Source: a virus
Taxonomy: Duplodnaviria > Heunggongvirae > Uroviricota > Caudoviricetes
IMG/VR virus record: IMGVR_UViG_2684623133_000001
Coordinates: 1-64,000 of that record
Reading direction: 5' to 3' (one strand)
DNA: 64,000 nt
Part shown: positions 1 through 26,192 of the stretch, piece after piece
Layout: each line of letters opens with the position of its first letter
Position numbering within the stretch: position 1 is the first letter of the stretch
Notes under the pieces: model-generated
What the model was told of the DNA's origin: nothing
Database searches by the model: none
What the model saw: the letters and a program-made list of their open reading frames with translations, nothing else
Program-made: the position numbers and the translations under genes

Positions 1-1044
1 CTAGCGCCAGGTGCGCGCGAACTTCAGGAACGCGTCGTTCTCCATCGGTGCCCCGATGGTCACCCGGACTCCGTCAGTGCCAAAGGGGCGCACGATGATT
101 CGAGCCTCCGCGGAGGCCTGGGCGAATTCGGTGGAGCGCTCACCCAGCGGCAACCACACGAAGTTCGCCTGCGACGGCGGCACCTGATAGCCGGCTTCCC
201 GCAGTGCGCTGGTCACCCGGGCGCGTTCGGTGACAACGTCATTGGTGCGCGCGAGCAGCTCCTCGGCGGCGCCGAGGGAAGCCACCGCGGCGGCTTGCGC
301 GAGGCTCGACGCACTGAACGGTACGTACACCTTGCCCAGTGTGGTGATCACATCGGGATCGCCGACCGCGTAGCCGACTCGCAGCCCTGCCAGGCCGTAC
401 GCCTTCGAGAAGGTGCGCAAGACAACGACATTGGGGTGCTCACGCACCAGTGCGAGGCTGTCGGTGAAGTCCTCGCGTACGTACTCGACGTATGCCTCGT
501 CGATCGCGATCAGGATATGCGGCGGCACCGACTCGACGAACCGCCGCAGTTCGGCGGGCCGCACCACGGTGCCGGTCGGGTTGTTGGGGTTGCAGACGAA
601 GATCAGCCGGGTGACGTCGGTCACGGCGGCCGCCATGGCGGCGAGGTCATAGGTGTGGTCGACCAGCGGTACCGGCACCGGAGTCGCCCCCGCGACCCGC
701 ACCACCAACGGATAGGTCTCAAAGGACCGCCAGCCGAACAGCACCTCGTCGCCCACCGTTGCGGTGATCTGGACCAGCTGCTGGCATAGGCTCACCGACC
801 CGCACCCCACCGCGATGTGCTCGGGTGGCATGTCGACGTGCTTGGCCAGGTGCGAGCGCAGCTCGGCGTAGCCGTTATCGGGGTACCGATTGATTAGCGA
901 TCCCGCCTCGGCGAGGGCGGCCCGCACGCTCGGCAGTGGTTCCTGCACGGTCTCATTACTGGCGAGCTTGATGGCGCCGGGGACGTTTCGGCCCGGTGTG
1001 TAGGCCGGTAGTTCGGTCAGCTCGGGGCGAAGTCGTGCGGGCAC
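1..1044 (-). CDS. hisC: Class II PLP aminotransferase, histidinol-phosphate/aromatic aminotransferase family (HisC/Pat-like); host chromosomal gene
   Basis: Complete 347-aa ORF from the track. Motifs NPNNPTG and SFSKAYGLAGLRVGY are typical of the HisC family and resemble mycobacterial HisC2/Pat. Confidence 0.85.
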   Translation of the reverse strand: MPARLRPELTELPAYTPGRNVPGAIKLASNETVQEPLPSVRAALAEAGSLINRYPDNGYAELRSHLAKHVDMPPEHIAVGCGSVSLCQQLVQITATVGDEVLFGWRSFETYPLVVRVAGATPVPVPLVDHTYDLAAMAAAVTDVTRLIFVCNPNNPTGTVVRPAELRRFVESVPPHILIAIDEAYVEYVREDFTDSLALVREHPNVVVLRTFSKAYGLAGLRVGYAVGDPDVITTLGKVYVPFSASSLAQAAAVASLGAAEELLARTNDVVTERARVTSALREAGYQVPPSQANFVWLPLGERSTEFAQASAEARIIVRPFGTDGVRVTIGAPMENDAFLKFARTWR

Positions 1045-1180: not shown

Positions 1181-1269
1181 GGAGGCGTGCCAGAGCGGCC
1201 GAATGGGACTCACTGCTAATGAGTTGTCCCCTTTACGGGGGACCGGAGGTTCAAATCCTCTCGCCTCCG
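1181..1269 (+). tRNA. tRNA-Ser (anticodon GCT), long variable arm
   Basis: GGAGGCG...CGCCTCC acceptor stem. Anticodon loop is cTGCTAa. A long extra arm is present, with a GGTTCAAATCC T-loop. No CCA is encoded. Confidence 0.9.
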
Positions 1270-1317
1270 CGTCGGTCTGCAGGCCAAACCTGTTGACCTG
1301 CAACAATTGAATAGTAA

Positions 1318-1393
1318 GCGCCCGTAGCTCAACGGATAGAGCATCTGACTACGGATCAGAAGGTTAGGGGTTCGAATCCCTTCGGGCGCACCA
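1318..1393 (+). tRNA. tRNA-Arg (anticodon ACG), CCA encoded
   Basis: GCGCCCG/CGGGCGC acceptor stem. D-arm is TAGCTCAACGGATAGAGC. Anticodon loop is CTACGGA. T-loop is GGTTCGAATCC. Terminal CCA is encoded. Confidence 0.9.
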
Positions 1394-1658
1394 CAGAAGG
1401 CCCGTCGCCCTCGGGCGGCTGCTCGCCTTCACCGTCGGCTAACCAACTCACTGGTACGCCACAGGCCAATGCCCAGGCATTAAGAACAATCTTCTTCGGG
1501 ACGGTTCGGCCCTTTTCGCAATTGCCAATAACCGACCGGCCGACCCCCATCATTTCGGCTAATTGCCTTTGATCTAGTTGGGCTTCTTCCCGTGCGATCT
1601 GTAGGCGGTATCGCAGACGCATTGGGGGGATGTTCCCTGTTTCGTATGCAACGGTCAT
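1356..1658 (-). CDS. XRE-family HTH repressor-like protein (prophage immunity repressor candidate); the ORF reads into the tRNA-Arg 3' end
   Basis: Track ORF 1356..1703. HTH motif QLDQRQLAEMMGVGRSVIGNCEKG. Start probably at the internal Met (1658 or 1622). The C-terminal codons are the reverse complement of the tRNA-Arg 3' half. Confidence 0.6.
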   Translation of the reverse strand: MTVAYETGNIPPMRLRYRLQIAREEAQLDQRQLAEMMGVGRSVIGNCEKGRTVPKKIVLNAWALACGVPVSWLADGEGEQPPEGDGPSVVRPKGFEPLTF

Positions 1659-1783
1659 ATGCGCATGGTATGCGCGTACGCGCACCCACGCAAGGTGGTG
1701 CAAATTGACCTAATCCGCAAACATCCCCTGATTGCTGCAAAGTCGACATAAGTTCACTAGCTGCGAAAACTTCCACAAGGGTG

Positions 1784-1812
1784 CTTGCGCGCACTATGCG
1801 AATATGCGCAAG
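1784..1812. promoter_or_regulatory. Candidate operator: 7-bp inverted repeat CTTGCGC-N15-GCGCAAG in the divergent repressor/cro intergenic region
   Basis: A perfect IR is seen in the sequence between the divergent HTH genes. An AT-rich TATGCGAATAT sits between the arms. Confidence 0.3.
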
Positions 1813-1820
1813 ATGGGCGT

Positions 1821-2054
1821 ATGGCCGCACCCACCGCTGAGACACCTGAGCAGCCAGACGAGATCACCGTCACTAAGGCCGCGACGACCTACAACGTCTC
1901 CAAACGGACTCTCCAGGCACTCGCCGTGTCCGGCCGCATCCCCGCCCGACTCGTCGGCAAGACCTACCTGCTCGACCACCAGGCCGTCCGCCTATATGCA
2001 CAGGCACGCCAGGCCACCCGCGACCTCAACGACTACGCCCAGGCCGCCTCATGA
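1821..2054 (+). CDS. HTH_17/excisionase-family DNA-binding protein (Cro/Xis-like)
   Basis: Track ORF 1785..2054. Motif TTYNVSKRTLQALAVSGRIPARLVGKTYLL is a typical excisionase/MerR-like HTH. Divergent from the repressor. Start likely at Met13 (1821). Confidence 0.55.
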   Translation: MAAPTAETPEQPDEITVTKAATTYNVSKRTLQALAVSGRIPARLVGKTYLLDHQAVRLYAQARQATRDLNDYAQAAS

Positions 2055-2950
2055 GCACCATCGCAGCCACCGCCATGTCCCCATCGGCCGCTCGTGACCT
2101 CACCGAGCGCATCCGCACCACAATTGACCGCACCTGGGACCTCATCGCCAAGGCATACACAGACCGCGCCTGGGCAGTCCTCGGATACCCGACCTGGGAC
2201 GTCTACTGCGAACGCGAGTTCGGGTCCACCTGGTTCAAGCTCCCCCGCGAGACCCGCGGCGAGGTAGTGCAGTCCCTGCGCGACCTCGGCCTGTCCACAC
2301 GTGCCATCGGCTCCGCAATAGGGGTCGATGACCGCACAGTCCGCCGCGACCTGTCAGGCGCGGCATCTGCCGCACCTGCGGCGGTCATGGGCACCGACGG
2401 CAAGACCTACGCGTCTACCCAGCCCGCTCGCCCTCACCTGGCCGTCGTGCCAGACCTCCCCACAACCGAAGACCACCCGGAGACCGCCCCCTTGCCCCAC
2501 GGCGGGACGGCCTCCGGGCCACCACTGACCCCGTCGCTACTCATTTCCGGCGACGGGTACTCAGTCGTGCACAACGCACCCCAAGCCGACGGCGTCGAGC
2601 CACAGCTCACGTCCTTCGCCATCTGCCACTGCGGCGCCCGAGCCGACCTGTACGACAACGCCACCCAAGAGGACCGCGAGCGGTTCGACGAGTTCGGCGT
2701 CATACACGACCAATGCCCTGAGCAAGACGATCCGGAGCCCGAGACCGCGCCCGCCCCGGCGCGCCGGAAGCCGATTACAGACTCCTTCGACGACGCCACC
2801 ACGGCAGTCACGAAGGCGGTGAAGCGGGTAGAGGCACTGGCGGCTGACGACCGCTTCGACAAGAACGCGGACCAACTCGCCCTACGCAAGAGCGACCTGG
2901 TCCGCGCACGGGACGCGCTGCAACGCGTCATCGAGAAGTTCCCCTCGTAA
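2051..2950 (+). CDS. Hypothetical phage early protein with HTH-like segment (LGLSTRAIGSAIGVDDRTVRRDL)
   Basis: 299-aa ORF. ATGA overlap with the upstream stop. Confidence 0.5.
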   Translation: MSTIAATAMSPSAARDLTERIRTTIDRTWDLIAKAYTDRAWAVLGYPTWDVYCEREFGSTWFKLPRETRGEVVQSLRDLGLSTRAIGSAIGVDDRTVRRDLSGAASAAPAAVMGTDGKTYASTQPARPHLAVVPDLPTTEDHPETAPLPHGGTASGPPLTPSLLISGDGYSVVHNAPQADGVEPQLTSFAICHCGARADLYDNATQEDRERFDEFGVIHDQCPEQDDPEPETAPAPARRKPITDSFDDATTAVTKAVKRVEALAADDRFDKNADQLALRKSDLVRARDALQRVIEKFPS

Positions 2951-2970
2951 CCACAACAAGGAGTTGCTTC

Positions 2971-3834
2971 ATGTCGAATGCTATACCGCTGCACCGGCCC
3001 CCGGCCATCACGACGGACATCGAAACCATCGACGGCACGACCGCCGACGAATACCTCAAGTTCAACACCCACAACCGGCCCCTCAACGAGCGCAAGGTCA
3101 TCCAGCTGGCCGCCGACATGGAGGCAGGCCGTTGGCAGATGAACGGCGAGGCAATCAAATTCGATACCGCAGGCGCCCTGCTGGACGGCCAACACCGCCT
3201 CCACGCGATCTCCCTGTGCGGTGTATCCATCGACTCGGTCGTAATCCGCAACCTGCCGCCGGAAACCCAGATCACCATGGACCAGGGCACCAAACGGTCA
3301 CCCAGCGACCAACTCAACCTGTCCGGCATCACCGCCTCCAAGTCCGACGCTTCGGCCGTCAAGACGCTGATCATCTGGGAGCGCGGCTGGTTCTACACCG
3401 ACCGCGCCACCGGCTCGGTCACCAGCTCTGAGATTGTCGAGTGGACCCTTGCCAACCCCGACACTTTTGAGTTGATCAGGCGCGGCACCCACTACACGCG
3501 CATCAAGGCGCGCCGCGGACTCATCATGGCCGTCTACGCAGGCATCGGACGCATCCACGGCGTGGAGGTCACCTCAGAATTCTTCCAACGCACCCTCGAC
3601 GGCGTTGGCCTCGAAATCGGATCGCCAATCCTTGCACTGCGCAACAGGTTTGATCGCGTCCGCGGTGAAGGCTTCAAGATGCCCGACGCCGAGGCCATCG
3701 GCTATTTCGTCGCCGCCTTCAACCACTGGCTATCCGACCACCACGTGGCCCGGTTGCAGCAGCCCAAGGGAGGCTGGAACAAGACCAACTTCCCGCAGCT
3801 CGTCGGCGCACCGGCCCAGGAAGTACTCCGGTGA
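2971..3834 (+). CDS. ParB-like nuclease domain protein
   Basis: N-terminal ParB/Srx-like motif ERKVIQLAADMEAGRWQMNGEAIKFDTAGALLDGQHRLHAI. Confidence 0.6.
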   Translation: MSNAIPLHRPPAITTDIETIDGTTADEYLKFNTHNRPLNERKVIQLAADMEAGRWQMNGEAIKFDTAGALLDGQHRLHAISLCGVSIDSVVIRNLPPETQITMDQGTKRSPSDQLNLSGITASKSDASAVKTLIIWERGWFYTDRATGSVTSSEIVEWTLANPDTFELIRRGTHYTRIKARRGLIMAVYAGIGRIHGVEVTSEFFQRTLDGVGLEIGSPILALRNRFDRVRGEGFKMPDAEAIGYFVAAFNHWLSDHHVARLQQPKGGWNKTNFPQLVGAPAQEVLR

Positions 3835-3906
3835 TCCGCGAGGTAGTCGTACCGCTTGTCTGGATGCTCCTGTTCGGCGCATTCATCGGCGCCGTCTTGA
3901 TGGCCA

Positions 3907-4287
3907 GTGTCATGGCGGCCCGGTGATGACATGGCGCGCATCCACGAACGCCCCGAGTTGCCAATGCATCTCGTCGACATCACCGGCGATCACACCGTCG
4001 CCGAGGCCGCGCGCCTGCTATCCCTTGACCCGTCCATCAGTATCGGCCGCGACCAGCTATTCGACGCCATGGAGGACGAGGACTGGATCTTCCGCGGCCG
4101 TGACCACCGATGGATCGCCTACGCCGAAGCCGTAACGCTCGGCTACCTCGCACTCCATGACGGAGGCGAATACCAAACGCCCACAGGGCAAACCAAAGAA
4201 CGACCCAAACAGATTTACCTAACCCCTAACGGGGTCGCGGAAATGCACTACCGCCTCGGCGGCAGCCAACAGCTAGCACTCACCTGA
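3907..4287 (+). CDS. Hypothetical protein
   Basis: 126-aa ORF from the track. Start may be at the internal Met (about 3931). Confidence 0.4.
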   Translation: MSWRPGDDMARIHERPELPMHLVDITGDHTVAEAARLLSLDPSISIGRDQLFDAMEDEDWIFRGRDHRWIAYAEAVTLGYLALHDGGEYQTPTGQTKERPKQIYLTPNGVAEMHYRLGGSQQLALT

Positions 4288-4452
4288 TCAACCACCTACT
4301 CAGCACGAGGAGACAGCCATGCCCATACGTGAAACCAAGTGGTGGCGCCGCGCCCTATTCGGTGTCCAACCAACACCACCTCCGGTGCCGCCGAGCCCTA
4401 ACCCAATCTGGGACGAGCTGACCGCCAAGCACGGCAGCCCGGCCGAAATCTG

Positions 4453-5079
4453 GTGTGCAGCAGCATGATTGAAAACACCTCGCAACGCCACCCCATCGAA
4501 CATCTGGTCGGCTGCCTCGACGGCAACACCTCCAACTACATCGAGGGCATGGAGCGGTCCGGGCAACAGCAGCTCCTCAAATCCGACCTCCTCCCTGCCG
4601 ACGCCGGGCGGGTGTGGTCAGGTGAGGGCGACGGAATGCTCGGCATCAATGGCTGGGATGTTCTGGAACAGTGGGGATTCCAACGCGGCGAAAGTGTCGA
4701 GGCTGACCCACTGTTCGTCTGCGCCACCCTCCCGCAGGGGTGGTCGCGCAAGGGCAGCGAACACGCCATGCACTCAACCATCGTCGACGACCGCGGCGTA
4801 GAACGCGTCAGCGTCTTCTACAAGGCCGCCTTCTACGACCGCCGGGCCAGTATGTCCGTGATCACCGACCCCGGGGGCAACCTCGGAAGCAACGCGATCT
4901 ATGGCGCCGCCGCCGTGGCCCTGCCGGATGAGTGGTCGGTGCTCACCGCCGAAGAACGCGAGGGATTCCGAGGCGCGCTCGACGGCTATCTACGGCGTGC
5001 CGACGAGTATCCAGACATCTACGGGGACCGGGTGCCCCGAGTACGCGACCTCGTGGCACTGGTGGAGGCCGCAGCATGA
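4453..5079 (+). CDS. Hypothetical protein
   Basis: 208-aa ORF. Stop overlaps the next start (ATGA). Confidence 0.5.
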   Translation: MCSSMIENTSQRHPIEHLVGCLDGNTSNYIEGMERSGQQQLLKSDLLPADAGRVWSGEGDGMLGINGWDVLEQWGFQRGESVEADPLFVCATLPQGWSRKGSEHAMHSTIVDDRGVERVSVFYKAAFYDRRASMSVITDPGGNLGSNAIYGAAAVALPDEWSVLTAEEREGFRGALDGYLRRADEYPDIYGDRVPRVRDLVALVEAAA

Positions 5080-5375
5080 TGCGCCGACTTCCCACCGTGG
5101 CTATGGCCGCCGTACTGGCGCTCGCGACCGCAGCGCCAGCATCGGCCGACCGGGTCAACGACGTCGCCAACGACATCGGCGGCGCAGTCTGCGTCATCGT
5201 CGGCGCCGACCCAACCTTCCACGGCATCAACAGCATCGGACAGGCCCTCAACCAGCGCGGGTTCACCGACCAGGCCGCCGGACGCGTCATCGCCCTCTCC
5301 GTATCTGCCTACTGCCCATGGCATCAGCCACTCATCGACCTGTACACCAAGGCCGCCCGCTGGAGGTCAGCGTGA
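5076..5375 (+). CDS. Small secreted protein (N-terminal signal peptide)
   Basis: MMRRLPTVAMAAVLALATAAPASA signal-like N-terminus. In frame within track ORF 4932..5375. Confidence 0.5.
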   Translation: MMRRLPTVAMAAVLALATAAPASADRVNDVANDIGGAVCVIVGADPTFHGINSIGQALNQRGFTDQAAGRVIALSVSAYCPWHQPLIDLYTKAARWRSA

Positions 5376-5944
5376 GCCGTGACGTGTGGGTCGTCGACCT
5401 GGAAACAACCGGACTAGACCGGAATATCCACCTCCCAGTCGAAGTGGCGGCCGTGAACCTCAAGACCGGGCGCGAAATCCGCTTCGTGCCCTTCATCACC
5501 GGAGATGAGCTGGGCAAGGCAGACCGGGAAGCCATGCGGATCAACATGTACTACGAGCAGGGCCTGTACAAGGACCAGCTTGACCGCGACACGTCAATCC
5601 GCTGCTACCAAGACGTTTTCGAGCTGCTACAAGGGCAGACCCTGGCAGGCGCAAATCCCCGGTTTGACGCCGACATGCTGCTGATCGGCTACGAGTGGCT
5701 ACTCCAGCAGGAGCCGCGGCTACCCGGTAGCAGCACTCGCGTAGAGGCGCCATGGCATCACCGTCTAGCAGACGTATGCGCCTACGCCGCAGGAACTCTC
5801 AACATCGCCCCCGACGACATACCCGGCCTCGCCGGGGTGTGCCAACTACTCGGCGTCACCAATGAGGCCGAGCACACCGCGCTGGGAGACGCCCGCGCGA
5901 CCGTCGAATGCTTCCGCCGCCTCTACCCCGGGAAGGACCAATGA
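5372..5944 (+). CDS. DnaQ-like DEDDh 3'-5' exonuclease
   Basis: Exo I motif VVDLETTGL and Exo III motif HTALGDARAT. GTG start overlaps the upstream stop (GTGA). Confidence 0.75.
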   Translation: MSRDVWVVDLETTGLDRNIHLPVEVAAVNLKTGREIRFVPFITGDELGKADREAMRINMYYEQGLYKDQLDRDTSIRCYQDVFELLQGQTLAGANPRFDADMLLIGYEWLLQQEPRLPGSSTRVEAPWHHRLADVCAYAAGTLNIAPDDIPGLAGVCQLLGVTNEAEHTALGDARATVECFRRLYPGKDQ

Positions 5945-6195
5945 ACGACCCCGTCGCACGCCACAACCAACTGGTGAGCAAGAACATCGAGATCGCCACG
6001 AGCAAGTTGTCTCCCATGGAGCGGCTCCGGAAGCAAGCAGCCGCCAATTCCAGCACCCTCGGGTACGCCGTCTTCCTGGGACTGCAACGACAGGCCAACA
6101 CCTACGCCGGGACAGTGCCCGCTGACGAGGTCCAGCGTCGGCGCCGCCGGAACCGCGCGGCCCGCAAGGCGCGCCGTAGGAACCGCGCGTCATGA
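5941..6195 (+). CDS. Hypothetical protein with Arg-rich C-terminus
   Basis: ATGA coupling to the upstream gene. C-terminal RRRRRNRAARKARRRNR. Confidence 0.45.
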   Translation: MNDPVARHNQLVSKNIEIATSKLSPMERLRKQAAANSSTLGYAVFLGLQRQANTYAGTVPADEVQRRRRRNRAARKARRRNRAS

Positions 6196-6977
6196 GGAAG
6201 GAATGCACCCGGCCCAACTGCACCGAGTTGGTACAGGCCCGCGGACTGTGCCCGACTCACTACGCCAAGTACCGGCGCCTCGCTGTCTCCGACGGCCGCT
6301 GGAGCCCGCTGCACGTACCGGCCGACGACACCCGCACCCGCGTCCTCGCCCTGATGGCGGCGGGGGTCGGCATATCCCGGATCGCGGAACTTGCCGGAGT
6401 TACCCACCGGGCCATCGACTTCCTGACCCGGGAAGACCAGCGCCTGGTGAAACGAACCACCCGCGCCGCAATCCTCGCTATACCGGTGCCCGTGTGTCCG
6501 TTTGGGCCACAGATGGCCGCTGGCGCGCGGATAGATGCCACCGGTTCACGGCGCCGCGTTCTCGCCCTCTCCGCTGTCGGATGGTCGCAGCAGCACCTCT
6601 CGGTGCGCCTCGGGCTACACCCCGGCCGCCTGTCCAAGGTCGCAACCGGCGCCGTCAAGAAGGTCACGGTGTCACGCGCCCGAGAGATCGACGCCCTGTA
6701 CCGCGAGTTACAGGAAGTACCAGGTCCTTCCAACGTCGCACGGCGCATCGCCACGCAGAGGGGATGGCCGCCGCCAGTGGCATGGGACGACACCGAAATC
6801 GACGACCCCGCCGCAACGGCCCACATCCGCGGAGGACAGGTCGTATGGATCGACCTCTACCGCGACTACCTCGACCTCGGATTGTCCAACGACCAGATCG
6901 CCGAACGCATGGGAGTCACAACGGAATCCGTCGAAGCACGGCTCAAGCGGCTACGCAAGAAGGGCATAGCGGCATGA
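6192..6977 (+). CDS. DNA-binding protein: N-terminal Cys4 zinc finger plus three HTH-like repeats (possible transcription regulator)
   Basis: CTRPNCTELVQARGLCPTHY. Repeated HTH-like segments. C-terminal sigma-region-4-like segment LSNDQIAERMGVTTESVEARLKRLRKKG. Confidence 0.5.
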   Translation: MRKECTRPNCTELVQARGLCPTHYAKYRRLAVSDGRWSPLHVPADDTRTRVLALMAAGVGISRIAELAGVTHRAIDFLTREDQRLVKRTTRAAILAIPVPVCPFGPQMAAGARIDATGSRRRVLALSAVGWSQQHLSVRLGLHPGRLSKVATGAVKKVTVSRAREIDALYRELQEVPGPSNVARRIATQRGWPPPVAWDDTEIDDPAATAHIRGGQVVWIDLYRDYLDLGLSNDQIAERMGVTTESVEARLKRLRKKGIAA

Positions 6978-7186
6978 CAGCACGCAAGAAGGCCAAGCCG
7001 CTACCGGGTGCCATAACCACCCAGAAACGCAACGACGGCACCGGTTGGAGCTGGCGCTGGCTCTCCAACAAGGGCAACGTGCACTTTCACCCGGGACCGT
7101 TCCCAACCACCACCGCTGCGCGCGCCGCAGCCCGTAAGTGGGTACGAGACAAAGTGCTTCGCGAGGCCCCCGGTGACGACGAATGA
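6974..7186 (+). CDS. Small AP2-like DNA-binding domain protein
   Basis: 70 aa. GWSWRWLSNKGNVHFHPGPFPTTTAARAAARKW resembles an AP2/integrase-type DNA-binding fold. ATGA coupling. Confidence 0.4.
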   Translation: MTARKKAKPLPGAITTQKRNDGTGWSWRWLSNKGNVHFHPGPFPTTTAARAAARKWVRDKVLREAPGDDE

Positions 7187-7368
7187 GCGCGCGGCGACGC
7201 TGCCCAGTATGCGGTGCAACCGTGTTCCGCACACCCAACGGCAACGTCCTCACACACCACGACCCACACGGCATCGCGCGCTGCCCCATGTCGGGCGACA
7301 GGTTCGAGATTTGCGAGCCGTGGACCCCACGCGTCAAACACCTTTGGGAACGGCGCGCCGCAGCGTGA
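7183..7368 (+). CDS. Small Cys-rich (zinc-ribbon-like) protein
   Basis: 61 aa with CPVCG...CP. Coupled starts. Confidence 0.4.
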   Translation: MSARRRCPVCGATVFRTPNGNVLTHHDPHGIARCPMSGDRFEICEPWTPRVKHLWERRAAA

Positions 7369-7715
7369 CAACCGACGACATCTGGGCAGAGCCGTACATC
7401 ACCGAGTGGAACGAAGACCTGACCCGTGAACACGTCAAGGGCCGGTCAATGGGCTGGTGCGAGTGGTGTGGCAAGCAGCACGGGACTGACATGCACCACC
7501 GCCGCAATCGTTCACAGGGCGGTGGCTGGCACCCCGCCAACATCGTGCACCTGTGCCGCGACTGCCACCACTGGGTCACCACCAACCCGGCGGACGCCGA
7601 AGCAGTCGGACTCACCCTCACCCACGGCCAGGACCTATACGACACCCCCATCGCGCTACCGCTGCACGACATCTACCTGCACGACAACTACCTACCGAAG
7701 GGCCGCAACGCATGA
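7365..7715 (+). CDS. HNH endonuclease
   Basis: CEWCG...HHRRNRSQGG...NIVHLCRDCHHW is an HNH motif with a zinc ligand set. Confidence 0.75.
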   Translation: MTTDDIWAEPYITEWNEDLTREHVKGRSMGWCEWCGKQHGTDMHHRRNRSQGGGWHPANIVHLCRDCHHWVTTNPADAEAVGLTLTHGQDLYDTPIALPLHDIYLHDNYLPKGRNA

Positions 7716-8611
7716 CCGCCGCCGACGTGAAGCTGATACCCGCCGTGGACGGCGTGTACGCCGGTATCCCCGACGAGGCGTACCACGCCGACCGAGCCAG
7801 CCTGTCGTCATCAGGTGCACGTTCCCTGCTGTCACCGTCCTGCCCGGCGATCTTTCACCACGAGCAACAGCAGCCGCCGAAGCCGAAGAAGCAGTACGAC
7901 TTTGGGCACGCCGCACACAAGTACGTGCTGGGCGAAGGCAGCGAGATCGCAGTCTTGGACCCCGCGGTGCACGGATTGAACAAGGACGGCACACCGTCCA
8001 AGGCGCCGACACACACCGCCATGTGGCAGCAGGCCGTCGACGAGGCACGCCAGCGCGGCCAGGTACCCATGAGCGTTGACGAGGACACCAAGGCCCGGGC
8101 GATGGCGGCGAAGGTCCGCGAACACCCACTGGCCGCCGCACTGCTGTCAGATGGCACCCCGGAGTTGTCCGGGTACTGGCACGACCCAGAAACCGGTGTC
8201 CGGCTCCGCTTCCGGCCTGACTGGCTGCCCAACCCCGGCCGCGGACGTCTCGTTGTCGTCGACTACAAAACGAGCACCAGTGCCAGCCCCGCTCACTTCG
8301 CCAAGGCCGCAGCCGAATACGGATACCACCAACAGGTTCCCTGGTACCTCGACGGACTTGCCGCCGCTGAAATCTCGGATGATGCCGCGTTCGTATTCAT
8401 CGTCCAGTCGAAGGACGCCCCATACCTGGTGTCCGTCATGGAACTTGACCCGCAGGCCGTCGACCTTGGCCGCCGCCGCAACCGCAAGGCCATCGACCTC
8501 TACGCCCGATGCGTCGCCAACGACCACTGGCCGGACTACGGCCAGGGCATCCACCCCGTATCCCTACCCAACTATGCCGTCTACAGCCAAGAAGGAGACC
8601 TAGACCAGTGA
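7712..8611 (+). CDS. RecE-like/Cas4-family PD-(D/E)XK exonuclease (phage recombination exonuclease)
   Basis: VVVDYKTS core motif. Sits immediately upstream of RecT, which is the canonical phage Exo-RecT order. Confidence 0.65.
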   Translation: MTAADVKLIPAVDGVYAGIPDEAYHADRASLSSSGARSLLSPSCPAIFHHEQQQPPKPKKQYDFGHAAHKYVLGEGSEIAVLDPAVHGLNKDGTPSKAPTHTAMWQQAVDEARQRGQVPMSVDEDTKARAMAAKVREHPLAAALLSDGTPELSGYWHDPETGVRLRFRPDWLPNPGRGRLVVVDYKTSTSASPAHFAKAAAEYGYHQQVPWYLDGLAAAEISDDAAFVFIVQSKDAPYLVSVMELDPQAVDLGRRRNRKAIDLYARCVANDHWPDYGQGIHPVSLPNYAVYSQEGDLDQ

Positions 8612-9813
8612 CCGTCACCGCCTACCAGCCCGTATCCGCTCCCACCCGTACCGCCACCAGCCAGGCGACGTCTGTGGAGCAGTCCCGCGCAATCGCCGAG
8701 GTTCAATCGGCTGTCATTGTCGCGCAACAGATTCCGCGCGACCTCAACCGCGCCGAGGCAGAGATGCGGGACGCGTGCAGCCGTTTGGCCATGGCCGTCC
8801 AAGCGTTCTACCAGGTACCCAACCGTGGCACCGGCCCGTCTGTTCACCTAATGCGCGAGCTGGCCCGGGTATGGGGCAACGTCCAGTACGGCGTCAACGA
8901 ATTGCACCGCGACGACACCAGGGGGGAATCAGAGATCCTGGCCTGGGCGTGGGACGTCCAAACCAACACCCGAGCCACCCGCACCTTCATCGTCCCGCAC
9001 GCCCGCATGGCCCGCGGTCGCCGCGAAGAGCTGACCGACCTCGGCGACATCACCAATAACAACAACAACGCTGGCGCCCGCGCCGTACGCGAGTGCATCA
9101 GCGCGATCCTGCCCAAGTGGTTCACCGAGGAAGCACAAAACCGGTGCCGCGCCACCCTCGAAAACGGCGAGGGCGTCCCACTCAGTGAGCGCATCGAGAA
9201 GATGGTCACCGAGTTCCGCAAGCAGCTGGGCATCACCGAGGCCCAGATGGAAGCCCGGATCGGAAAGAAGCGCGGGGCCTGGGACGCAGGGGACGTCGCC
9301 CAGATGGGCATCACCTACACCTCCATCACCCGCGACGGGCTCGACAAAAACGAGGCATTCCCGGCCGCGGCATCGTCACTGGCCGACGAAATCACCGCAG
9401 CGGCAGCAGAGAAGAAGCAACCAGAAACGGACCCCGAGGCATCTACGACCGGTGATCTGGCACCCGACGACCAGCGCGCTACCGAGCGCGAGGGTGCTAC
9501 AGAGCCCGGGGCCGAGGAGGTCCCCGCGCCGGGCGGTGGTGACCCCACGCCGCCGCCCGGCAGCGGCACGTCTGACGGGGACGACCCGGCAGAGGTCAAC
9601 AGCTGCGGCGATTTCCTGGCCACGAAGAAGGACGTCGGCACTATCCGCGGCCTTCTCGCCAACGCCAAGTACTCGTTCCGCACCAAGGAATCCGCTGCCG
9701 ACGCACTGGCCTACCTCAAGACGGTCATCGGCAGGGACATATCGGACATCAACCACCTGTCCGAGTCAGAAGCGGCAGCCATCATCACCGCACTCAACAA
9801 CAAGGAGAACTAA
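8608..9813 (+). CDS. recT: RecT-family single-strand annealing recombinase
   Basis: 402 aa from a GTG start. The RecT-like N-terminal two thirds precede an acidic, Pro/Gly-rich tail. Paired with the upstream exonuclease. Confidence 0.65.
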   Translation: MTVTAYQPVSAPTRTATSQATSVEQSRAIAEVQSAVIVAQQIPRDLNRAEAEMRDACSRLAMAVQAFYQVPNRGTGPSVHLMRELARVWGNVQYGVNELHRDDTRGESEILAWAWDVQTNTRATRTFIVPHARMARGRREELTDLGDITNNNNNAGARAVRECISAILPKWFTEEAQNRCRATLENGEGVPLSERIEKMVTEFRKQLGITEAQMEARIGKKRGAWDAGDVAQMGITYTSITRDGLDKNEAFPAAASSLADEITAAAAEKKQPETDPEASTTGDLAPDDQRATEREGATEPGAEEVPAPGGGDPTPPPGSGTSDGDDPAEVNSCGDFLATKKDVGTIRGLLANAKYSFRTKESAADALAYLKTVIGRDISDINHLSESEAAAIITALNNKEN

Positions 9814-9817
9814 CCAA

Positions 9818-10705
9818 ATGTCCTGGGAATTCGTAACATTCCTCATCGTCGGCGGCATCGCATTGCTGCTATTTCTCGGTGGTCTAGGCGTCAAATTCTT
9901 AGACCGAAACTCTGAGGGCGCTATCGCCTCGATGGGCACCGGGCTCATCGGCATCCTGATTGCCTTCGCGGTCCTCCTCATCGGCTGCTTCACGGTCGTA
10001 GGCACCCGCAAGGTCGGAATCGAGACCGTCTTCGGGCGGCCCTCCGGCGAAACGCTTTCCAACGGCTTCCACTGGAAGAAGCCGTGGGCGACGGTCGACG
10101 AGATGGACGCAGCAGTCCAGATCGACAAGTACGAGGGCAACGGCCGCATCAAGGTCCGGCTGGGCAACTCGTCCACCGCCGACGCTGACGTATCCGTGCG
10201 CTGGCAGATCAAACAGGACGCCGCCGACGAGCTGTACGTGCAATACCGGTCATTCGACAACGTCCGTACCAACCTGATTACCCGCAACCTCCAGGTCTCA
10301 CTCAACGACGTGTTCTCCAAGCTCGACCCGCTGGCAACCAAGTGGGCCAACGGGTTACCGCTGGAGACCTTCGCCAAGGAAGCGTCTGAGAAGCTGCGCG
10401 CCTTGGTAGGTGACCAGGTCGACATCCTGGACGTCGCCGTCCCCACCATCGACTACGACGACGGTACCGAGGCCCGTATCAACGAGCTGAACGCAGAGCG
10501 TGCGAACACCGCGAAGGCCGAGCAGGCGAAGAAGACGGCCACCGAACAGGCCGAAGCCAACCGCATCCTCTCCTCGTCAGTGTCCAACGACCCCAACGTG
10601 ATTGTGCAGAACTGCATCACCAAGGCACTGGACAAGAGCATGTCGCCGTGGGGCTGCTGGCCCGGCACCGGCGCACTCGCCACCATCCCCGCACCCATCA
10701 AGTAA
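9818..10705 (+). CDS. SPFH/band-7 (stomatin/prohibitin-like) membrane protein
   Basis: Two N-terminal hydrophobic helices, then a band-7 core (GIETVFGRPSGETLSNGFHWKKPWATVDEMD...) and a coiled-coil Ala/Glu-rich tail. Confidence 0.65.
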   Translation: MSWEFVTFLIVGGIALLLFLGGLGVKFLDRNSEGAIASMGTGLIGILIAFAVLLIGCFTVVGTRKVGIETVFGRPSGETLSNGFHWKKPWATVDEMDAAVQIDKYEGNGRIKVRLGNSSTADADVSVRWQIKQDAADELYVQYRSFDNVRTNLITRNLQVSLNDVFSKLDPLATKWANGLPLETFAKEASEKLRALVGDQVDILDVAVPTIDYDDGTEARINELNAERANTAKAEQAKKTATEQAEANRILSSSVSNDPNVIVQNCITKALDKSMSPWGCWPGTGALATIPAPIK

Positions 10706-10731
10706 CACCCCACGAAAGGAACACCGCCCAT

Positions 10732-11097
10732 ATGACCACTCCAGCCCCCGAGGAAGAGGACCGGGTACGCCCGTTCGCCGACTTCCTGCGGGAACTCCAG
10801 AAGGGCCGCGTGCACGACGAGCTGTCCGACGGCCTCAAGGAAGTCGTCGCCGCCGTCCGCGCGACCGGCAAGGCCGGATCACTCACGTTGAAGCTCAGCG
10901 TTTCTGAGCAGGCCAACACTTCCATGTTGGTCATCAAAGACGACGTGACCGTCAAGGCGCCACAGGCCGACCGCCAGGTATCCCTCTGGTTCGTCGACCG
11001 CGAGGGCAACGTCACCCGCACCGACCCGGCGCAACTCCAATTCGAGTCCATGAAAGCGGTCGCCGAGAGCACCACGAACATCCGAAAGGAAGCCTGA
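10732..11097 (+). CDS. Hypothetical protein
   Basis: 121-aa ORF in frame with track 10648..11097. Confidence 0.45.
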   Translation: MTTPAPEEEDRVRPFADFLRELQKGRVHDELSDGLKEVVAAVRATGKAGSLTLKLSVSEQANTSMLVIKDDVTVKAPQADRQVSLWFVDREGNVTRTDPAQLQFESMKAVAESTTNIRKEA

Positions 11098-11100
11098 CCC

Positions 11101-11925
11101 ATGACCGACGAAATCCGCACCGAGGCAGACGCTGTCGCCGAACTCACCAACGCGGCGGAGCGGCACCGCACCGAGCAGGTAGTGCCCGACACCGCGCACA
11201 TCCTGTCGTACGTCACAAACGAAGACGAACACCGCGAGTTCGACTCGTTGGAGCGGTTCCTGCCGAACCCACGCCGCGACCGCGGCACCACCACCGTGCT
11301 TGACGTCGACAGCTTCAACAAGCTGAGCGACGGCGCTCTGCAACTCGACGCCGTCGCGTACGCCGACCGCGGCCCCAGCCGCATCACCGCGGTCCTGAAC
11401 GACAAGGGCTGGCGTGACCACCGCATCGTGGTGGCGCTACAGCTGTCCCGTGAGTGGAACCACTGGGCGGCGGCCGACGGCAAGCTGCTCAACCAGATTC
11501 AGTTCGCCGAGCACATAGAGGACGGCCTGGCGGCCATCACCTCGCCACCGGCAGCGGACCTGATGGAGGTCGTGCAGAACTTCCAGACGAAACGCAAGGT
11601 CGAGTTCCAGTCCGGCCACCGCACCCAGTCCGGCGAAGTGCAGTTCCAGTACAAGGAGGAGGCCACCGCCACCGCTGGCGGCAAGGGCGGACACATCGAG
11701 GTGCCCGAGCACTTCACCCTCCGCATCCCCGTCTACGAACGCGGCGACGTGTACGACCTCACCGCGCGCCTGCGGTTCCGCATCGGACAGGACGGCTTGC
11801 TCCTCGGCTACAAGCTGGACCGTGCCGGGGACGTCAAGGACGCAGCGTTCGACGCCGAGGTGGCGAAGCTGGCCGTCATCAAGTCCGTGTTCGGTCCCGC
11901 GCCCGACACGATCCGCGAGCTGTGA
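11101..11925 (+). CDS. Hypothetical protein, DUF2303/YfdQ-like
   Basis: 274-aa ORF whose sequence resembles the phage YfdQ family. Assigned from memory, not searched. Confidence 0.4.
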   Translation: MTDEIRTEADAVAELTNAAERHRTEQVVPDTAHILSYVTNEDEHREFDSLERFLPNPRRDRGTTTVLDVDSFNKLSDGALQLDAVAYADRGPSRITAVLNDKGWRDHRIVVALQLSREWNHWAAADGKLLNQIQFAEHIEDGLAAITSPPAADLMEVVQNFQTKRKVEFQSGHRTQSGEVQFQYKEEATATAGGKGGHIEVPEHFTLRIPVYERGDVYDLTARLRFRIGQDGLLLGYKLDRAGDVKDAAFDAEVAKLAVIKSVFGPAPDTIREL

Positions 11926-11945
11926 GCAGGAGGAAGGAGTTCCCG

Positions 11946-12323
11946 TTGGTGGCGGTGTTAGCCGTCACCAACGGACTCCCTGAAGGCGCCATCTGCACCG
12001 TGGTGCAGGTGCAGGACCTGTTGTCGCACATGACGGGCAACCGGATCTTCTTGCACCAGATACCGCGTGCGAAAGACGTGTGCGGCAAGTTCCTCCGCGA
12101 CCAGCACACCTGGCTAGACAACACCTGTCCCTCGTCGGAGCAGCTGGCAGACGTCGCCAAGTTGCGGCGCTGGGCGAATGCAGTCCAGAAGGTGCGCGGC
12201 GAAACGGTGAAGGTAAGCGTGTTGCCTGGGGACGCCTACACGTACATGGACCCAATCATCGAGAACGCGGTCAACATCAAGGCCGCGGAGCAAGCCGCCA
12301 AGGAGAAGGCGGCGGCAGGGTGA
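11946..12323 (+). CDS. Hypothetical protein
   Basis: AGGAGG RBS at about 11928, then a TTG/GTG start. In frame with track 11454..12323. Confidence 0.4.
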   Translation: MVAVLAVTNGLPEGAICTVVQVQDLLSHMTGNRIFLHQIPRAKDVCGKFLRDQHTWLDNTCPSSEQLADVAKLRRWANAVQKVRGETVKVSVLPGDAYTYMDPIIENAVNIKAAEQAAKEKAAAG

Positions 12324-12598
12324 CCACACACACCGCCACCGGCTACCTGATCTTGGAGGCGTCGCGCGGCTACCGCACAGGCGACGACGGACTCAAGGTC
12401 GTCAACGGCCTGCGCATCGCCGGGTACCGGGCCAACCGCCCGGCGAAGCTGGCGCGCGACCAGATCACTGTCAAGGTTGGGGTCACCGTTGATGCTGCCG
12501 AGTTCTCGCCCATAACAGCAGAAATCGCGGTCACCCTCGCCCCGTCACAGGTAATCCACCCGGTCATTGAAGCCCTAGACCCAGCCAAGGAGCCCTGA
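12320..12598 (+). CDS. Hypothetical protein
   Basis: GTGA coupling. Confidence 0.4.
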   Translation: MTTHTATGYLILEASRGYRTGDDGLKVVNGLRIAGYRANRPAKLARDQITVKVGVTVDAAEFSPITAEIAVTLAPSQVIHPVIEALDPAKEP

Positions 12599-12894
12599 TG
12601 GCCATCCTCACCCAGGCCGACATGTTCCCCACAGCCAAGCGGAACACCCTCAACTACCGGGGCGACATCGCCGACCACGTCATGAGTGTCAACCAGCGAT
12701 GGGGGCCGGACATCTTCGGTGCCCTCTACACACCGGTGGCCGCGGTCTACGACCCCGAGGCCGATCAGACAAAGGTCACCTTCCGGTCTATCCCACGCCC
12801 ACAACCACAACGCGCCCACCAGCGCGACGAGATCCCGTTGGCACACCCGGACGGCAACCGGCGCCAGCGCCGACACAAGGGGAAGAAACATTGA
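12598..12894 (+). CDS. Hypothetical protein
   Basis: ATGA coupling. 98 aa. Confidence 0.4.
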   Translation: MAILTQADMFPTAKRNTLNYRGDIADHVMSVNQRWGPDIFGALYTPVAAVYDPEADQTKVTFRSIPRPQPQRAHQRDEIPLAHPDGNRRQRRHKGKKH

Positions 12895-13235
12895 CCACCA
12901 ACGACATTGAACGCGCCGTCAACGCGCTCCTAGACCTGTCCGGCCGCATGGTCCGAAGCATCGCCGACCAGATCGAGGCCACCTCCAAGACCTTCGACAC
13001 CGACAAACTTATGCAACGCCTCACTGGCGGCACGGATGAGCCACCAGAACGCGTGCATTTCGAGACCCTACTGCGCTGCGCCTACTGCAAGGCTTCCCTA
13101 AAAGTCAAGACTGGCCACAGCCCGTTTGAAGCCTGGATATGCCAAGCCTGCGCCCGCACCTGGCACAACTGGGACGGCGTTGCCCCGACCGTCGCCGCCC
13201 GCCTCCGCGTGACCGGAGCGGGTGATCGTCTATGA
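12891..13235 (+). CDS. Hypothetical protein with C-terminal Cys cluster
   Basis: TTGA coupling. CAYC...CQAC. Confidence 0.35.
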   Translation: MTTNDIERAVNALLDLSGRMVRSIADQIEATSKTFDTDKLMQRLTGGTDEPPERVHFETLLRCAYCKASLKVKTGHSPFEAWICQACARTWHNWDGVAPTVAARLRVTGAGDRL

Positions 13236-13840
13236 CCGCGCCCACCAACAAGGGATGGCTACGCAAGTGGCTGCGCCTAGAACCACACCAACCTATCGGT
13301 GCAGAAGGCGAGGCGCCGTACCTATTGCGCTGGTATGTAATCCCTCGCAACCGGTGGCTCAACATCTACCTCCACAAGTTCCTGCGTGATGACGATGACC
13401 GCGCCCTGCACGACCACCCCTGGTGGTTCCTGTCCCTGATGCTGTGGGGGCAGTACGTCGAGGTCACCGACGAAGGCCGCACGGTGCGCTCGGCGCCGGA
13501 GCCATGGCGCTGGTTCTGGGGCGACCATCCACTAGCGTTCCGGCCCGCCAAATGGACGCACCGCGTCGAGCTGATCAGCACCAGCGTGCAAGACCGTTAC
13601 GAGGACGGCACATGGGCCAGGAGCGCCACCCGGCACAAGCTGCCGTGCTGGACGCTAATTATCACCGGCCGCCGGTCCCGGCTATGGGGATTCTGGTGCC
13701 GCCGCCTCGTTGACCTGCGGGGGCTGGAAGCTATCGACGACGAGCTGGACCGGGTCGTGGCATCCACTGACGGTCAGGCCCTTGTCGAACGGTTCGTGCC
13801 GTGGGACGAGTTCGACGACGCCGGATGCGGTGAGTCGTGA
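13232..13840 (+). CDS. Hypothetical protein (HDHPW motif; possible metal-binding fold)
   Basis: 202-aa ORF. Confidence 0.4.
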   Translation: MTAPTNKGWLRKWLRLEPHQPIGAEGEAPYLLRWYVIPRNRWLNIYLHKFLRDDDDRALHDHPWWFLSLMLWGQYVEVTDEGRTVRSAPEPWRWFWGDHPLAFRPAKWTHRVELISTSVQDRYEDGTWARSATRHKLPCWTLIITGRRSRLWGFWCRRLVDLRGLEAIDDELDRVVASTDGQALVERFVPWDEFDDAGCGES

Positions 13841-14265
13841 TGCACAACGAGCTTCCAGCCGCCGAGACGACACCGACCGGACGTGTGTTGCAGATCGTGT
13901 TCTACGAGCGCATCTCTCAGAACGCGAAGTGGGGCGACCAGAACCACCCGAACGTCGAAACTGTGCTCACGCAGCGGCCGGGTGGTTGCACGCCGGAACG
14001 CATGGCGGAGGAGTACGGCATACCGAGCGCGATGCGCGCAAAGTACATGTGCCAAAAGGCCGCCAGGGAAGGCGAACCTACCTGGGCACACATCCTCGTC
14101 GAAGAGGTTGCAGAGGCCATCGAGGCGGCAACCCACCTCGACCGCGCAGCACACCTGGACTCCGACGCCTTCGACGCACTGCGCCAACGACTCCATGCCG
14201 AGCTGATCCAAACAGCCGCGGTAGCCGTCGCCTGGGCCGAGAAGATTGGAGGGGCAGATAAGTGA
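13837..14265 (+). CDS. MazG-like nucleoside triphosphate pyrophosphohydrolase
   Basis: ISQNAKWGDQNHP and the EEVAEAIEA EExxE motif. Confidence 0.55.
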   Translation: MMHNELPAAETTPTGRVLQIVFYERISQNAKWGDQNHPNVETVLTQRPGGCTPERMAEEYGIPSAMRAKYMCQKAAREGEPTWAHILVEEVAEAIEAATHLDRAAHLDSDAFDALRQRLHAELIQTAAVAVAWAEKIGGADK

Positions 14266-14729
14266 AGATCATTGACACACAACGCGAATGGATAGCCGTC
14301 TGCATCGACTGCCCGTCCCCGCCCGGTGAGGACGAGGCTACCTGGGCGTTTCCAGGTACCGACGAAGGCCAGAAGCATGCGGACGCCTTTGCGAAACGCC
14401 ACAACTCGCTGCAAGGGCACCGGACCCATGTCAACGAGCAGTTCGTGGTCACAGCCAGTAAATACGAAGGGCCGCACCTCCTCTACGTGGACCCGCTGCG
14501 TGTTGGTGATGCCGGTGACACCGCCGCGTCGATAGGTGAGAGGGTCACCCACACAACGGTATTCACCGGGCGACCTGCGGTGTACTACCTCGCCACCTGC
14601 CAGGAGTGCGTCGATATGAAGCTCCCGTTTGACACCGAGAACGACCGCGACCTATGGGCCGACACCCACCACGCGGGCACCGGCCACGACGTCGCACCGT
14701 CCGTCGAGATAGGGCCGGAGGAGGACTGA
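14262..14729 (+). CDS. Hypothetical protein
   Basis: GTG start. 155 aa. Confidence 0.4.
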   Translation: MKIIDTQREWIAVCIDCPSPPGEDEATWAFPGTDEGQKHADAFAKRHNSLQGHRTHVNEQFVVTASKYEGPHLLYVDPLRVGDAGDTAASIGERVTHTTVFTGRPAVYYLATCQECVDMKLPFDTENDRDLWADTHHAGTGHDVAPSVEIGPEED

Positions 14730-15049
14730 TGCCACCGATCAAGGTGAAGATCGTTCTGACAGCGGTCGTTTGCGACCACTGCAATACGTATTTCGGTGTG
14801 CCTCTGTGGCTTAGCGGGTCGCCGTTCCACTGCCCGCTTGGCCACCTCAACACCGCCCGCGAGTTCGAGAGGGACGAGCCCGCCGAATTGGACCCGGACG
14901 CCGAGCCGGTCTGCGACGAGTGCGACGAAGCCATCTATCAGCACATACACAACGACGGTCACTGGTACCACCGCGAGTCCGGCCAGCCCTGGTGCTACCG
15001 CGACCCCCAGCACACCGAAGTTGCACACCCCCGAAGGACACCACGATGA
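14729..15049 (+). CDS. Hypothetical Cys-rich protein
   Basis: CDHCN...CPLGH...CDECDE. Confidence 0.4.
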   Translation: MPPIKVKIVLTAVVCDHCNTYFGVPLWLSGSPFHCPLGHLNTAREFERDEPAELDPDAEPVCDECDEAIYQHIHNDGHWYHRESGQPWCYRDPQHTEVAHPRRTPR

Positions 15050-15249
15050 AGCGCATACCCCGTAACAGGTTGGTGCGTATCGGCGGGGGCACGAAGGTCT
15101 ACCGCGTCCATATCGCGCCTCGTGTCGGCGACGAGGGCGAGTACTACCTGACAGCCGATGCCGACCACCCCGAAGCCGCCAAGCGGGTTCCCGATGCGTT
15201 CCGCTGGTACAAACGCGACGAACTGCACCCAGTCGAGACGGGTATCTGA
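15046..15249 (+). CDS. Hypothetical small protein
   Basis: 67 aa. Coupled. Confidence 0.35.
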   Translation: MKRIPRNRLVRIGGGTKVYRVHIAPRVGDEGEYYLTADADHPEAAKRVPDAFRWYKRDELHPVETGI

Positions 15250-15458
15250 TGGCCAACACCGTCAACCTCCGCACCGGCACATACCGATCCGGGGACGGCA
15301 TCACCTTCATCGTCGCCGACGACGACCTCGGACCGTGCGGCATAACTGACTGCGCCACCCCCGCCATGATCGCCATCGACTTGGGCGGCCAAGGCGGCGC
15401 CCGCTGCCCCGAGCACTACCAACCATGGGCCGAAAACCCAACGGAGACACAACCATGA
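15249..15458 (+). CDS. Hypothetical small protein
   Basis: 69 aa. Coupled. Confidence 0.35.
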   Translation: MANTVNLRTGTYRSGDGITFIVADDDLGPCGITDCATPAMIAIDLGGQGGARCPEHYQPWAENPTETQP

Positions 15459-16042
15459 CACCCGAGAATATGCTCGAAGTATCGACCCGTAACCACCAGA
15501 TGAAGGTCCTGCGCGACAACGGCCTATACCGGCATATACGGTTTGCCGAACCAGGTACCGGTATATGGCGCTTCGACCTCGTTACATGGCCTGGCCACCT
15601 GGTGATCACCGGCGATCTAGAGGACTTCCACTTCGCCCGTATCGAGGACATGTTCGAGTTCTTCCGCAATCCCGTTGGATACATCAATCCGCAGTACTGG
15701 GCCGAGAAGCTACGCGGCCCGGTGCGGTCGATGTCGTTCTCCCAAGAGGTGTTCAAGCGCCTTGTGTACGAACATTTTCGCGACTGGTGCCGATGGAACG
15801 ACGGACCGCATCGACCGCTCTGGCGGGCCATCTGCAATGAAGTACTTCTCGACGAATACGGCGAGATGGGCGACGAGACCATGGCGCACCACGCGCTAAC
15901 CCAGTTCCGTCACGGCGATTTCGAGTTCACCGACAGCTGGGAATGGGAACTCAAAGACTACGACTTCCACTTCCTCGTTGCGCTGCACGCCATCGTGTGG
16001 GGCATCAACCGGTACGACGCGGCCAAGGCGGCGGCAGCGTAA
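15455..16042 (+). CDS. Hypothetical protein
   Basis: 195 aa. Confidence 0.4.
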   Translation: MTPENMLEVSTRNHQMKVLRDNGLYRHIRFAEPGTGIWRFDLVTWPGHLVITGDLEDFHFARIEDMFEFFRNPVGYINPQYWAEKLRGPVRSMSFSQEVFKRLVYEHFRDWCRWNDGPHRPLWRAICNEVLLDEYGEMGDETMAHHALTQFRHGDFEFTDSWEWELKDYDFHFLVALHAIVWGINRYDAAKAAAA

Positions 16043-16935: not shown

Positions 16936-17390
16936 TGACGGCCAGGGACGTGCTTGCCGCACTGCGGCTCCACCACGACAAGGCGGCCCTGGTCCAGGAG
17001 GTCGTGATCGCCGACGATTACCCGTACTGGCTGGACGATGACGAGGCCGTCAAACGAGACCCGTTGACCCGGCGTATCGACGCGCTCATGTTCGACACGA
17101 GCCTGGTGCGTACCGCTATCGAGATCAAGGTGTCCAGGGCGGACGTTGCGCGCGAGTCGTGGCGGAAGGTCTACCCATGGCGTCGGGTTGTTCACCGGTT
17201 TGTGTACGCCGTCCCCGCGGGATTGATCGAGCATCCGCCGGTCTACGGGTGCGGCCTGTGGTGGGTCCACCCGGACGGACGTATTGAGGTCCGGCGTAGG
17301 GCAAAGGTCAACAACGCGCCAGAGCCACTGCCGCAACACGTAATACGGGCTCTTGCGTACCGAGCGGCCGGGCGGGCGGTTCCCGAATGA
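16929..17390 (+). CDS. Putative PD-(D/E)XK-type nuclease (MmcB/VRR-NUC-like)
   Basis: RIDALMFD...AIEIKVSRAD is a D...E-x-K arrangement. Confidence 0.35.
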   Translation: MLMTARDVLAALRLHHDKAALVQEVVIADDYPYWLDDDEAVKRDPLTRRIDALMFDTSLVRTAIEIKVSRADVARESWRKVYPWRRVVHRFVYAVPAGLIEHPPVYGCGLWWVHPDGRIEVRRRAKVNNAPEPLPQHVIRALAYRAAGRAVPE

Positions 17391-19234: not shown

Positions 19235-19236
19235 GC

Positions 19237-19614: not shown

Positions 19615-19616
19615 CT

Positions 19617-24209: not shown

Positions 24210-24293
24210 CGCTGCGTACCCGGCACCTGCTTCCATGGAACCCAGAGACGGGACACATCAACGTATCCCGCAGCCCAGCGATAGGGCACGACT

Positions 24294-25652: not shown

Positions 25653-25656
25653 CTGG

Positions 25657-26108: not shown

Positions 26109-26118
26109 GACTCAGAAT

Positions 26119-26134: not shown

Positions 26135-26166
26135 GAAAAAACAAGCCTTAACGACCTTGCTTCTGT

Positions 26167-26182: not shown

Positions 26183-26192
26183 GTTCCGAGTC

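Follow-up and report, generated by a model that had tools for sequence, protein, structure and literature searches.

A cluster MabK prophage at the attB-1 tRNA-Arg gene of Mycobacterium abscessus, with a probable BPs-type integration-dependent immunity switch

Integration-dependent immunity was reportedly defined for phage BPs by Broussard et al. in 2013. In BPs, as Villanueva et al. (2015) described, the repressor gene contains attP and loses its 3' end on integration (PMC4557955). The short repressor is stable and active, while the long form is degraded via a C-terminal tag; both forms of this repressor, gp33, were purified and studied (PMC4557955). The repressor gene is flanked by a downstream integrase gene and a divergent cro-like gene (PMC4557955). 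Dedrick et al. (2021) described integration-dependent immunity in M. abscessus prophages and named both cluster MabK and the site attB-1 (PMC8092301). Amarh et al. (2023) assigned prophiT37-1 to MabK at attB-1 and obtained its attP PCR product in culture and in filtered supernatant (PMC9934374).

Here we analyzed a stretch of 64,000 nucleotides (64 kb; the window). Its first 11,044 nt are identical (100%) to Mycobacterium abscessus CP014958.1 (L008), and the window corresponds to about 237,332-301,331 of that chromosome. We consider it very likely that positions 1318-1703 are the attL of a ~74-kb cluster MabK phage integrated at attB-1, with an integration-dependent immunity switch of the BPs type. 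The features of the locus are collected in Table 1.

Table 1. Coordinates and supporting evidence for features of the host flank, the left prophage junction and the adjacent phage genes (window positions).
Feature	Position	Strand	Basis
hisC (histidinol-phosphate transaminase), host left flank	1..1044	-	PF00155; NF002878, 572 bits
tRNA-Ser(GCT), host	1181..1270	+	ARAGORN; Rfam RF00005
tRNA-Arg(ACG), attB-1 target	1318..1393	+	ARAGORN; Rfam tRNA model 71.6 bits
Prophage-encoded truncated immunity repressor, 100 aa	1356..1658	-	ORF; HTH_3 E=1.5e-10; BPs gp33 homology; annotated in OQ417969, MW584167
attL common core CAGAAGGTTAGGGGTTCGAATCCCTTCGGGCGCAC, 35 bp	1357..1391		exact repeat at attR, same genome; common to attB
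Cluster MabK-type prophage body, first 62.6 kb of 74.1 kb	1392..64000	+	nucleotide identity; ORF list
Divergent control region, repressor gene versus rightward early genes	1659..1820		repeat families D1/D2
Excisionase-family HTH gene, Cro position	1821..2054	+	HTH_17; TIGR01764 29.9 bits vs cut-off 28.8; 'excise' in both relatives

The left junction was placed by comparison with related genomes. Looked up by their HisC protein, M. abscessus genomes fell into three locus states: empty (FVMB01000002.1 and CP022230.1), with a MabK-type prophage after the tRNA (three genomes), and with another element whose 387-aa integrase lies beside the tRNA (four genomes). In many M. abscessus genomes hisC is the same neighbour at empty and occupied sites alike. 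The empty sites (L005 and L007, from the two genomes named above) match the window through 1391 and then differ, reading tcatccgcagg into an AHSA1-family gene. The empty site is thus ..GGGCGCAC/tcatcc and the lysogen ..GGGCGCAC/cacaga, and the first phage base is 1392. The original prediction had host genes ending at tRNA-Arg with phage genes following at once, and the empty sites bear this out, as do the GenBank prophage records, which begin at window 1357. The uninterrupted tRNA-Arg locus that it proposed to look for in related strains is the one found in these two genomes.

The tRNA-Arg gene is intact at attL, where the phage arm supplies the final two bases of its CCA end (1392-1393). At the empty site the gene has no encoded CCA (..GCGCAC tca; L005 9650-9660), whereas at attL the CCA is encoded by the phage arm (..GCGCAC ca; window 1389-1393). 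The right limit of the 35-bp core was set from the empty sites and the left limit from the phage arms at attR. The attL core is homologous to the annotated attP of BPs. A crossover left of the 35-bp core, at the anticodon loop, to which the phage arm bears an imperfect resemblance, was also considered and is ruled out by the host T at 1356, which is kept at attL.

The prophage continues past the end of the window, with early genes followed by terminase, capsid, tape measure (50258-54967) and minor tail genes. No integrase was found within the 64-kb window, nor does the tRNA 3' segment recur there with three or fewer mismatches. The far end was reached from relatives of the prophiT37-1 integrase, via the cluster member P0147. 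Two other look-ups, with the AHSA1-family gene right of attB (P0121) and with the integrase representative P0003, returned, respectively, empty and second-element sites but not the CP014958.1 prophage end, and short Logan contigs only. The segment that holds the far end (L023; CP014958.1 301,583-322,503) begins 252 bases past the window end. It contains a second exact 35-bp core, CAGAAGGTTAGGGGTTCGAATCCCTTCGGGCGCAC, at window-equivalent 75,486-75,520, 74,129 bp downstream of the one at 1357-1391. This is the direct repeat that the original prediction expected beyond the window. The integrase that it placed past the far end is there as well: a PF00589 tyrosine integrase lies at window-equivalent 74.25-75.26 kb on the repressor strand, and about 230 nt separate it from the attR core. 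As called it has 306 aa, and with an upstream ATG as its start it has 334 aa. Between it and the attR core lies a 3' fragment of the repressor gene, also on the repressor strand. Insertion at a tRNA 3' end is thus supported by a core repeat at both prophage ends and by an uninterrupted, phage-free site in related strains.

These findings bear on whether the region could be a defective remnant that has lost its integrase, with the overlap between the ORF and the tRNA incidental to decay. The window taken by itself would fit such a remnant, having neither an integrase nor a second att copy, but the integrase and attR 74 kb downstream in the same genome refute it. Moreover, the early and structural modules are complete and collinear with prophiT37-1 and prophiGD43A-5, prophiT37-1 is known to excise, and the overlap frame and its stop are the same as in BPs. 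We give this explanation virtually no weight and retain a MabK prophage with its integrase as our reading.

At attL, the repressor ORF as listed mechanically runs from 1703 to 1356 on the minus strand. We dropped the TTG start at 1703 in favor of the ATG at 1658, which is most likely the true start and gives 100 aa, because gene callers begin there in the source genome (L008 9387-9689) and BPs gp33 aligns there. The product matches HTH_3, HTH_19, HTH_31 and Phage_CI_repr. As first noticed, this XRE-type ORF reads into tRNA-Arg: 38 nt of it are antisense to the tRNA 3' half, comprising 11 full codons, the stop and a part codon (..VRPKGFEPLTF, then stop). The TGA stop is the reverse complement of 1356-1358, and its final base is the first host base. 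The core at 1357-1391 is read in the repressor frame and repeated at attR, in line with the proposal that the attP core copies the tRNA 3' end within a phage gene. The junction and the empty sites agree with the further suggestion that the repressor itself sits at attL.

An open frame across 35 nt is statistically unremarkable in DNA of 65% G+C, so the reading through the tRNA might be due to chance, with the real repressor ending upstream or the product being no repressor at all. The overlap gains its significance from homology, because BPs gp33 uses the same frame, as do three repressor alleles, all of which end at one host base. These alleles, of 99, 100 and 102 aa, come from three MabK-type lysogens. 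There is no in-frame stop before 1358, and the core-encoded segment RP(K/E)GFEP(L/P)TF is conserved with BPs gp33. A chance frame is accordingly so improbable that we set it aside, and we continue with a repressor gene that ends in the host.

The resemblance to BPs extends across the locus. The repressor is 53% identical to BPs gp33 (Cluster G) by BLASTP (E=2e-39, 121 residues), an alignment that covers the HTH domain and the core-encoded segment. Both phages target the 3' end of a tRNA-Arg gene, and 33 of the 35 positions of the attP core are the same. The annotated BPs attP, CAGAAGGTTGGGGGTTCGAATCCCTCCGGGCGCAC, is read in the same frame, giving VRPEGFEPPTF in BPs and VRPKGFEPLTF here, and one and the same host base completes the stop codon. 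Both phages have a tyrosine integrase gene downstream of the repressor gene, and a divergent HTH gene. The two repressor forms are 100 and 135 aa here and 103 and 136 aa in BPs. The locus thus has attP in the repressor frame, truncation by a stop at attL, a far-end integrase, a divergent HTH gene and a homologous repressor, as in a BPs-type system.

There are also clear differences. The host is M. abscessus here and M. smegmatis for BPs. The genome is 74 kb rather than 42 kb, and its structural genes are unrelated to those of BPs, being nearer to Cluster Y (for example Bipper, 76%). The integrase is shorter (334 aa, against 398 aa in BPs), and a gap lies between its gene and the repressor gene, where in BPs the two overlap. 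The viral-form C-terminus is -AAA or -DAA here and ..LDKAS in BPs, and the divergent gene belongs to the excisionase family here but is annotated Cro in BPs. The MabK integrase itself, unlike some family members, has no -AA tail (..LYPGS), which counts against the reading as integration-dependent immunity.

Classical lambda-like, tRNA-targeting prophages share with this one a tyrosine integrase and a core that copies and restores the 3' end of the tRNA gene. In those prophages, however, attP is intergenic and the integrase lies beside one junction, while here attP is within the repressor gene, and integration parts the repressor from the integrase, one at each prophage end. The classical layout is found at this very site in a second element, whose 387-aa integrase adjoins the core. 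The original prediction had called the arrangement atypical; the layout is as it described, but it did not recognise the named system, integration-dependent immunity, which is published for MabK and attB-1 (PMC8092301, PMC9934374, PMC4557955).

To obtain the viral form of the repressor, we reconstructed attP by joining the attR phage arm to the attL phage arm. The repressor frame runs through the core in the reconstructed attP of this genome, CP065033.1, GD43A-5 and T37-1. For prophiGD43A-5 and CP065033.1 it continues for 35 more codons past the core and ends in ..EADAA or ..DTAAA before the stop. Likewise, with the attR junctions of L024 and L028-L033 the frame continues to ..DTAAA or ..HTAAA. 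The viral-form C-termini of the relatives read ..PLPDTAAA, ..AELEADAA and ..RRHTAAA. The relatives have viral forms of 135-136 aa against prophage forms of 99-100 aa, and a 135-aa viral form is found in the L024 junction, which is otherwise identical, and in CP065033.1 and GD43A-5. The stop at attL shortens the repressor within the range of 20-35 residues expected of such a system, whereas the deposited attR of CP014958.1, with a one-base gap, gives only 102 aa.

This gap lies outside the window, at window-equivalent ~75,485. L023 is without one base (G in the repressor sense) directly left of the attR core, reading ccttctg/tcagta, where 14 other MabK-type junctions read ccttctg/Gtcagta or ccttctg/Gttaggt. 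With the extra base, the junction would read ..CCTTCTGGTCAGTA... As deposited, CP014958.1 would yield an excised-phage repressor of 102 aa that is untagged (..EPLTFCQ, then stop) instead of 135 aa, with the tag sequence intact in the adjacent frame. L024, from an independent sequencing run, equals L023 over 11,265 nt except for this gap. The prophiT37-1 record (OQ417969 ~76,173) is likewise without this base, and shows no other gap when aligned over 2.7 kb with its nearest relatives. The length of prophiT37-1 is given as 76,211 bp in the paper and as 76,210 in the record (PMC9934374). The simplest reading is a curation or assembly slip beside a repeat.

Taken at face value, the gap suggests a different account, in which the tRNA-targeted prophage is real but immunity in this copy is uncoupled from integration: the excised phage would make the untagged 102-aa repressor, presumably stable, and the switch would act conventionally or the prophage would be partly domesticated. 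The base is absent relative to 14 related junctions, is the sole difference between L023 and L024, and is also absent from the prophiT37-1 record. However, one base lost from a two-base homopolymer by a repeat is what assembly or curation errors typically look like, the one-base discrepancy in the published and deposited lengths of prophiT37-1 points the same way, and the tag-coding sequence is otherwise intact. The prophiT37-1 attP product in culture and filtered supernatant means that this phage excises and that its excised DNA reaches the supernatant. We regard uncoupled immunity in this copy as improbable. That the base loss is genuine and recurrent, putting the tag exon out of frame both in this genome and in prophiT37-1, which belongs to a different MabK sub-lineage, is somewhat easier to entertain, yet we still think it unlikely. 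If the gap were real, integration would change almost nothing in this copy, and the excised phage would make a stable repressor, a natural route for lysogens to uncouple immunity from integration; spontaneous lytic induction would be blunted. The border of the strand-exchange region may be where such a lesion originates. In prophiT37-1, core position 10 is G at attL (L001 position 10) but A at attR (L002 position 16184); host attB has A at this position and BPs attP has G. This pattern would place strand exchange in prophiT37-1 within the first 9 core bases, beside the base missing in the two records.

In our preferred reading, that of a BPs-type switch, the free phage would carry its attachment core within the repressor gene, about 100 codons in, with the tyrosine integrase gene just downstream in the same orientation. 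Recombination by the integrase with tRNA-Arg would split the repressor gene. The promoter and first 100 codons would stay at attL, with the frame running through the core to a TGA completed by the first host base, while the last ~35 codons, encoding an ssrA-like -AA tail, and the integrase gene would go to attR at the opposite prophage end. By analogy with BPs gp33, the short prophage form would be a stable, active repressor that keeps lysogeny and immunity, and the long viral form would be degraded, so that immunity would arise only after integration. The two junctions, the empty site, the frames and the homology to BPs gp33 are shown by the sequence itself. The predicted stability and activity of the 100-aa and 135-aa forms, and the candidate operators, follow the BPs experiments, and integration would likewise set the frequency of lysogeny.

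The control region between the repressor gene and the early genes contains repeated motifs. ATATGCGCA and TATGCGCG motifs recur at 1657-1684, overlapping the repressor start codon, and at 1786-1810, just upstream of the excise-family gene, and so flank the control region. The exact ATATGCGCA 9-mer occurs only at 1657 and 1802 in 64 kb, with 0.23 occurrences expected. The ATATGCGCA-type repeats may be repressor operator half-sites. The excisionase-family gene is divergent from the repressor gene, 162 nt from the repressor start, and from its position may have a putative Cro role. A consensus sigma-70 scan of 1250-2100, a scan not tuned to mycobacterial promoters, returned no promoter. Terminator-like hits at 1623-1639 were set aside, being inside the repressor coding region on the opposite strand.

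Assignment to cluster MabK rests on genome-wide similarity and on the site, attB-1, a tRNA-Arg gene beside hisC and tRNA-Ser. The closest relatives, prophiT37-1 (OQ417969, 76,210 bp) and prophiGD43A-5 (MW584167, 76,541 bp), share attB and gene order with this prophage. Nucleotide identity to the two is 93-94% over 100% of 40000-64000, 91% over 77-81% of 1357-25000 and 89-92% over 98% of 1300-5000. This prophage is shorter (74.1 kb vs 76.2 kb for prophiT37-1 and 76.5 kb for prophiGD43A-5), and its early region is mosaic. Each record annotates the parts of a split 'immunity repressor' at its two ends and a tyrosine integrase close inside the right one. Only one residue separates the prophage-form repressor from its prophiT37-1 counterpart, and the attL stop codon and convergent tRNA published for MabK fit exactly (PMC8092301). 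Our own reconstruction of the arrangement agrees with the published accounts throughout.

The structural genes at 40000-58000, from terminase to tape measure and minor tail, are 76-79% identical to those of the Cluster Y M. smegmatis phages Bipper, Typha and Hilltopfarm, and window 1351-1649 is matched by the immunity repressor gene of Bipper. It may therefore be that Cluster Y phages have this switch and this core too. Separately, ARAGORN called a tRNA-Thr(TGT) of 79 nt at 26778-26856 on the plus strand, with its anticodon at the unusual position 38 and a score below the Rfam gathering score; this could be a phage tRNA that has degenerated, or a false positive call.

Beyond the prophage, the right-end core is followed not by host DNA but by a second integrative element in L023 (CP014958.1), L013 (CP065033.1) and L014 (JABAOK010000001.1). 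In CP014958.1 it occupies L023 1-9690, from window-equivalent ~75,521 on. The element uses the same 35-bp tRNA-Arg core, has its own 387-aa tyrosine integrase beside it, and encodes a 1328-aa tape-measure-like protein, an HNH protein and a methyltransferase. On its own, in CP119725.1, it spans 16,650 bp between core copies, and L014 holds a 9.6-kb variant. The element was also seen at L004, L006, L009, L011, L020 and L022. As a unit it is absent from the phage collection, in which only the tape-measure-like gene matches other M. abscessus prophages, at 80-84%. The records of prophiGD43A-5 and prophiT37-1 end in ..gcgcacCAT and ..gcgcacCA, which match the arm of the second element and not the host arm, and in the GD43A-5 and T37 strains, too, the element probably follows the prophage in tandem. 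Prophages in tandem are known from attB-2 (PMC9934374), and we found no report of them at attB-1 in the M. abscessus prophage literature consulted (PMC8092301, PMC9934374).

The finding is real and its original interpretation correct, and the system, the cluster and the site are all already published. It adds no new biology; what it illustrates is that an integration-dependent immunity switch can be inferred from raw sequence alone. Prophage finders that expect an integrase beside the tRNA will mis-set the boundaries of such elements. For a selectable immunity marker cloned from such a prophage, the short, attL-encoded form of the repressor is the one needed.
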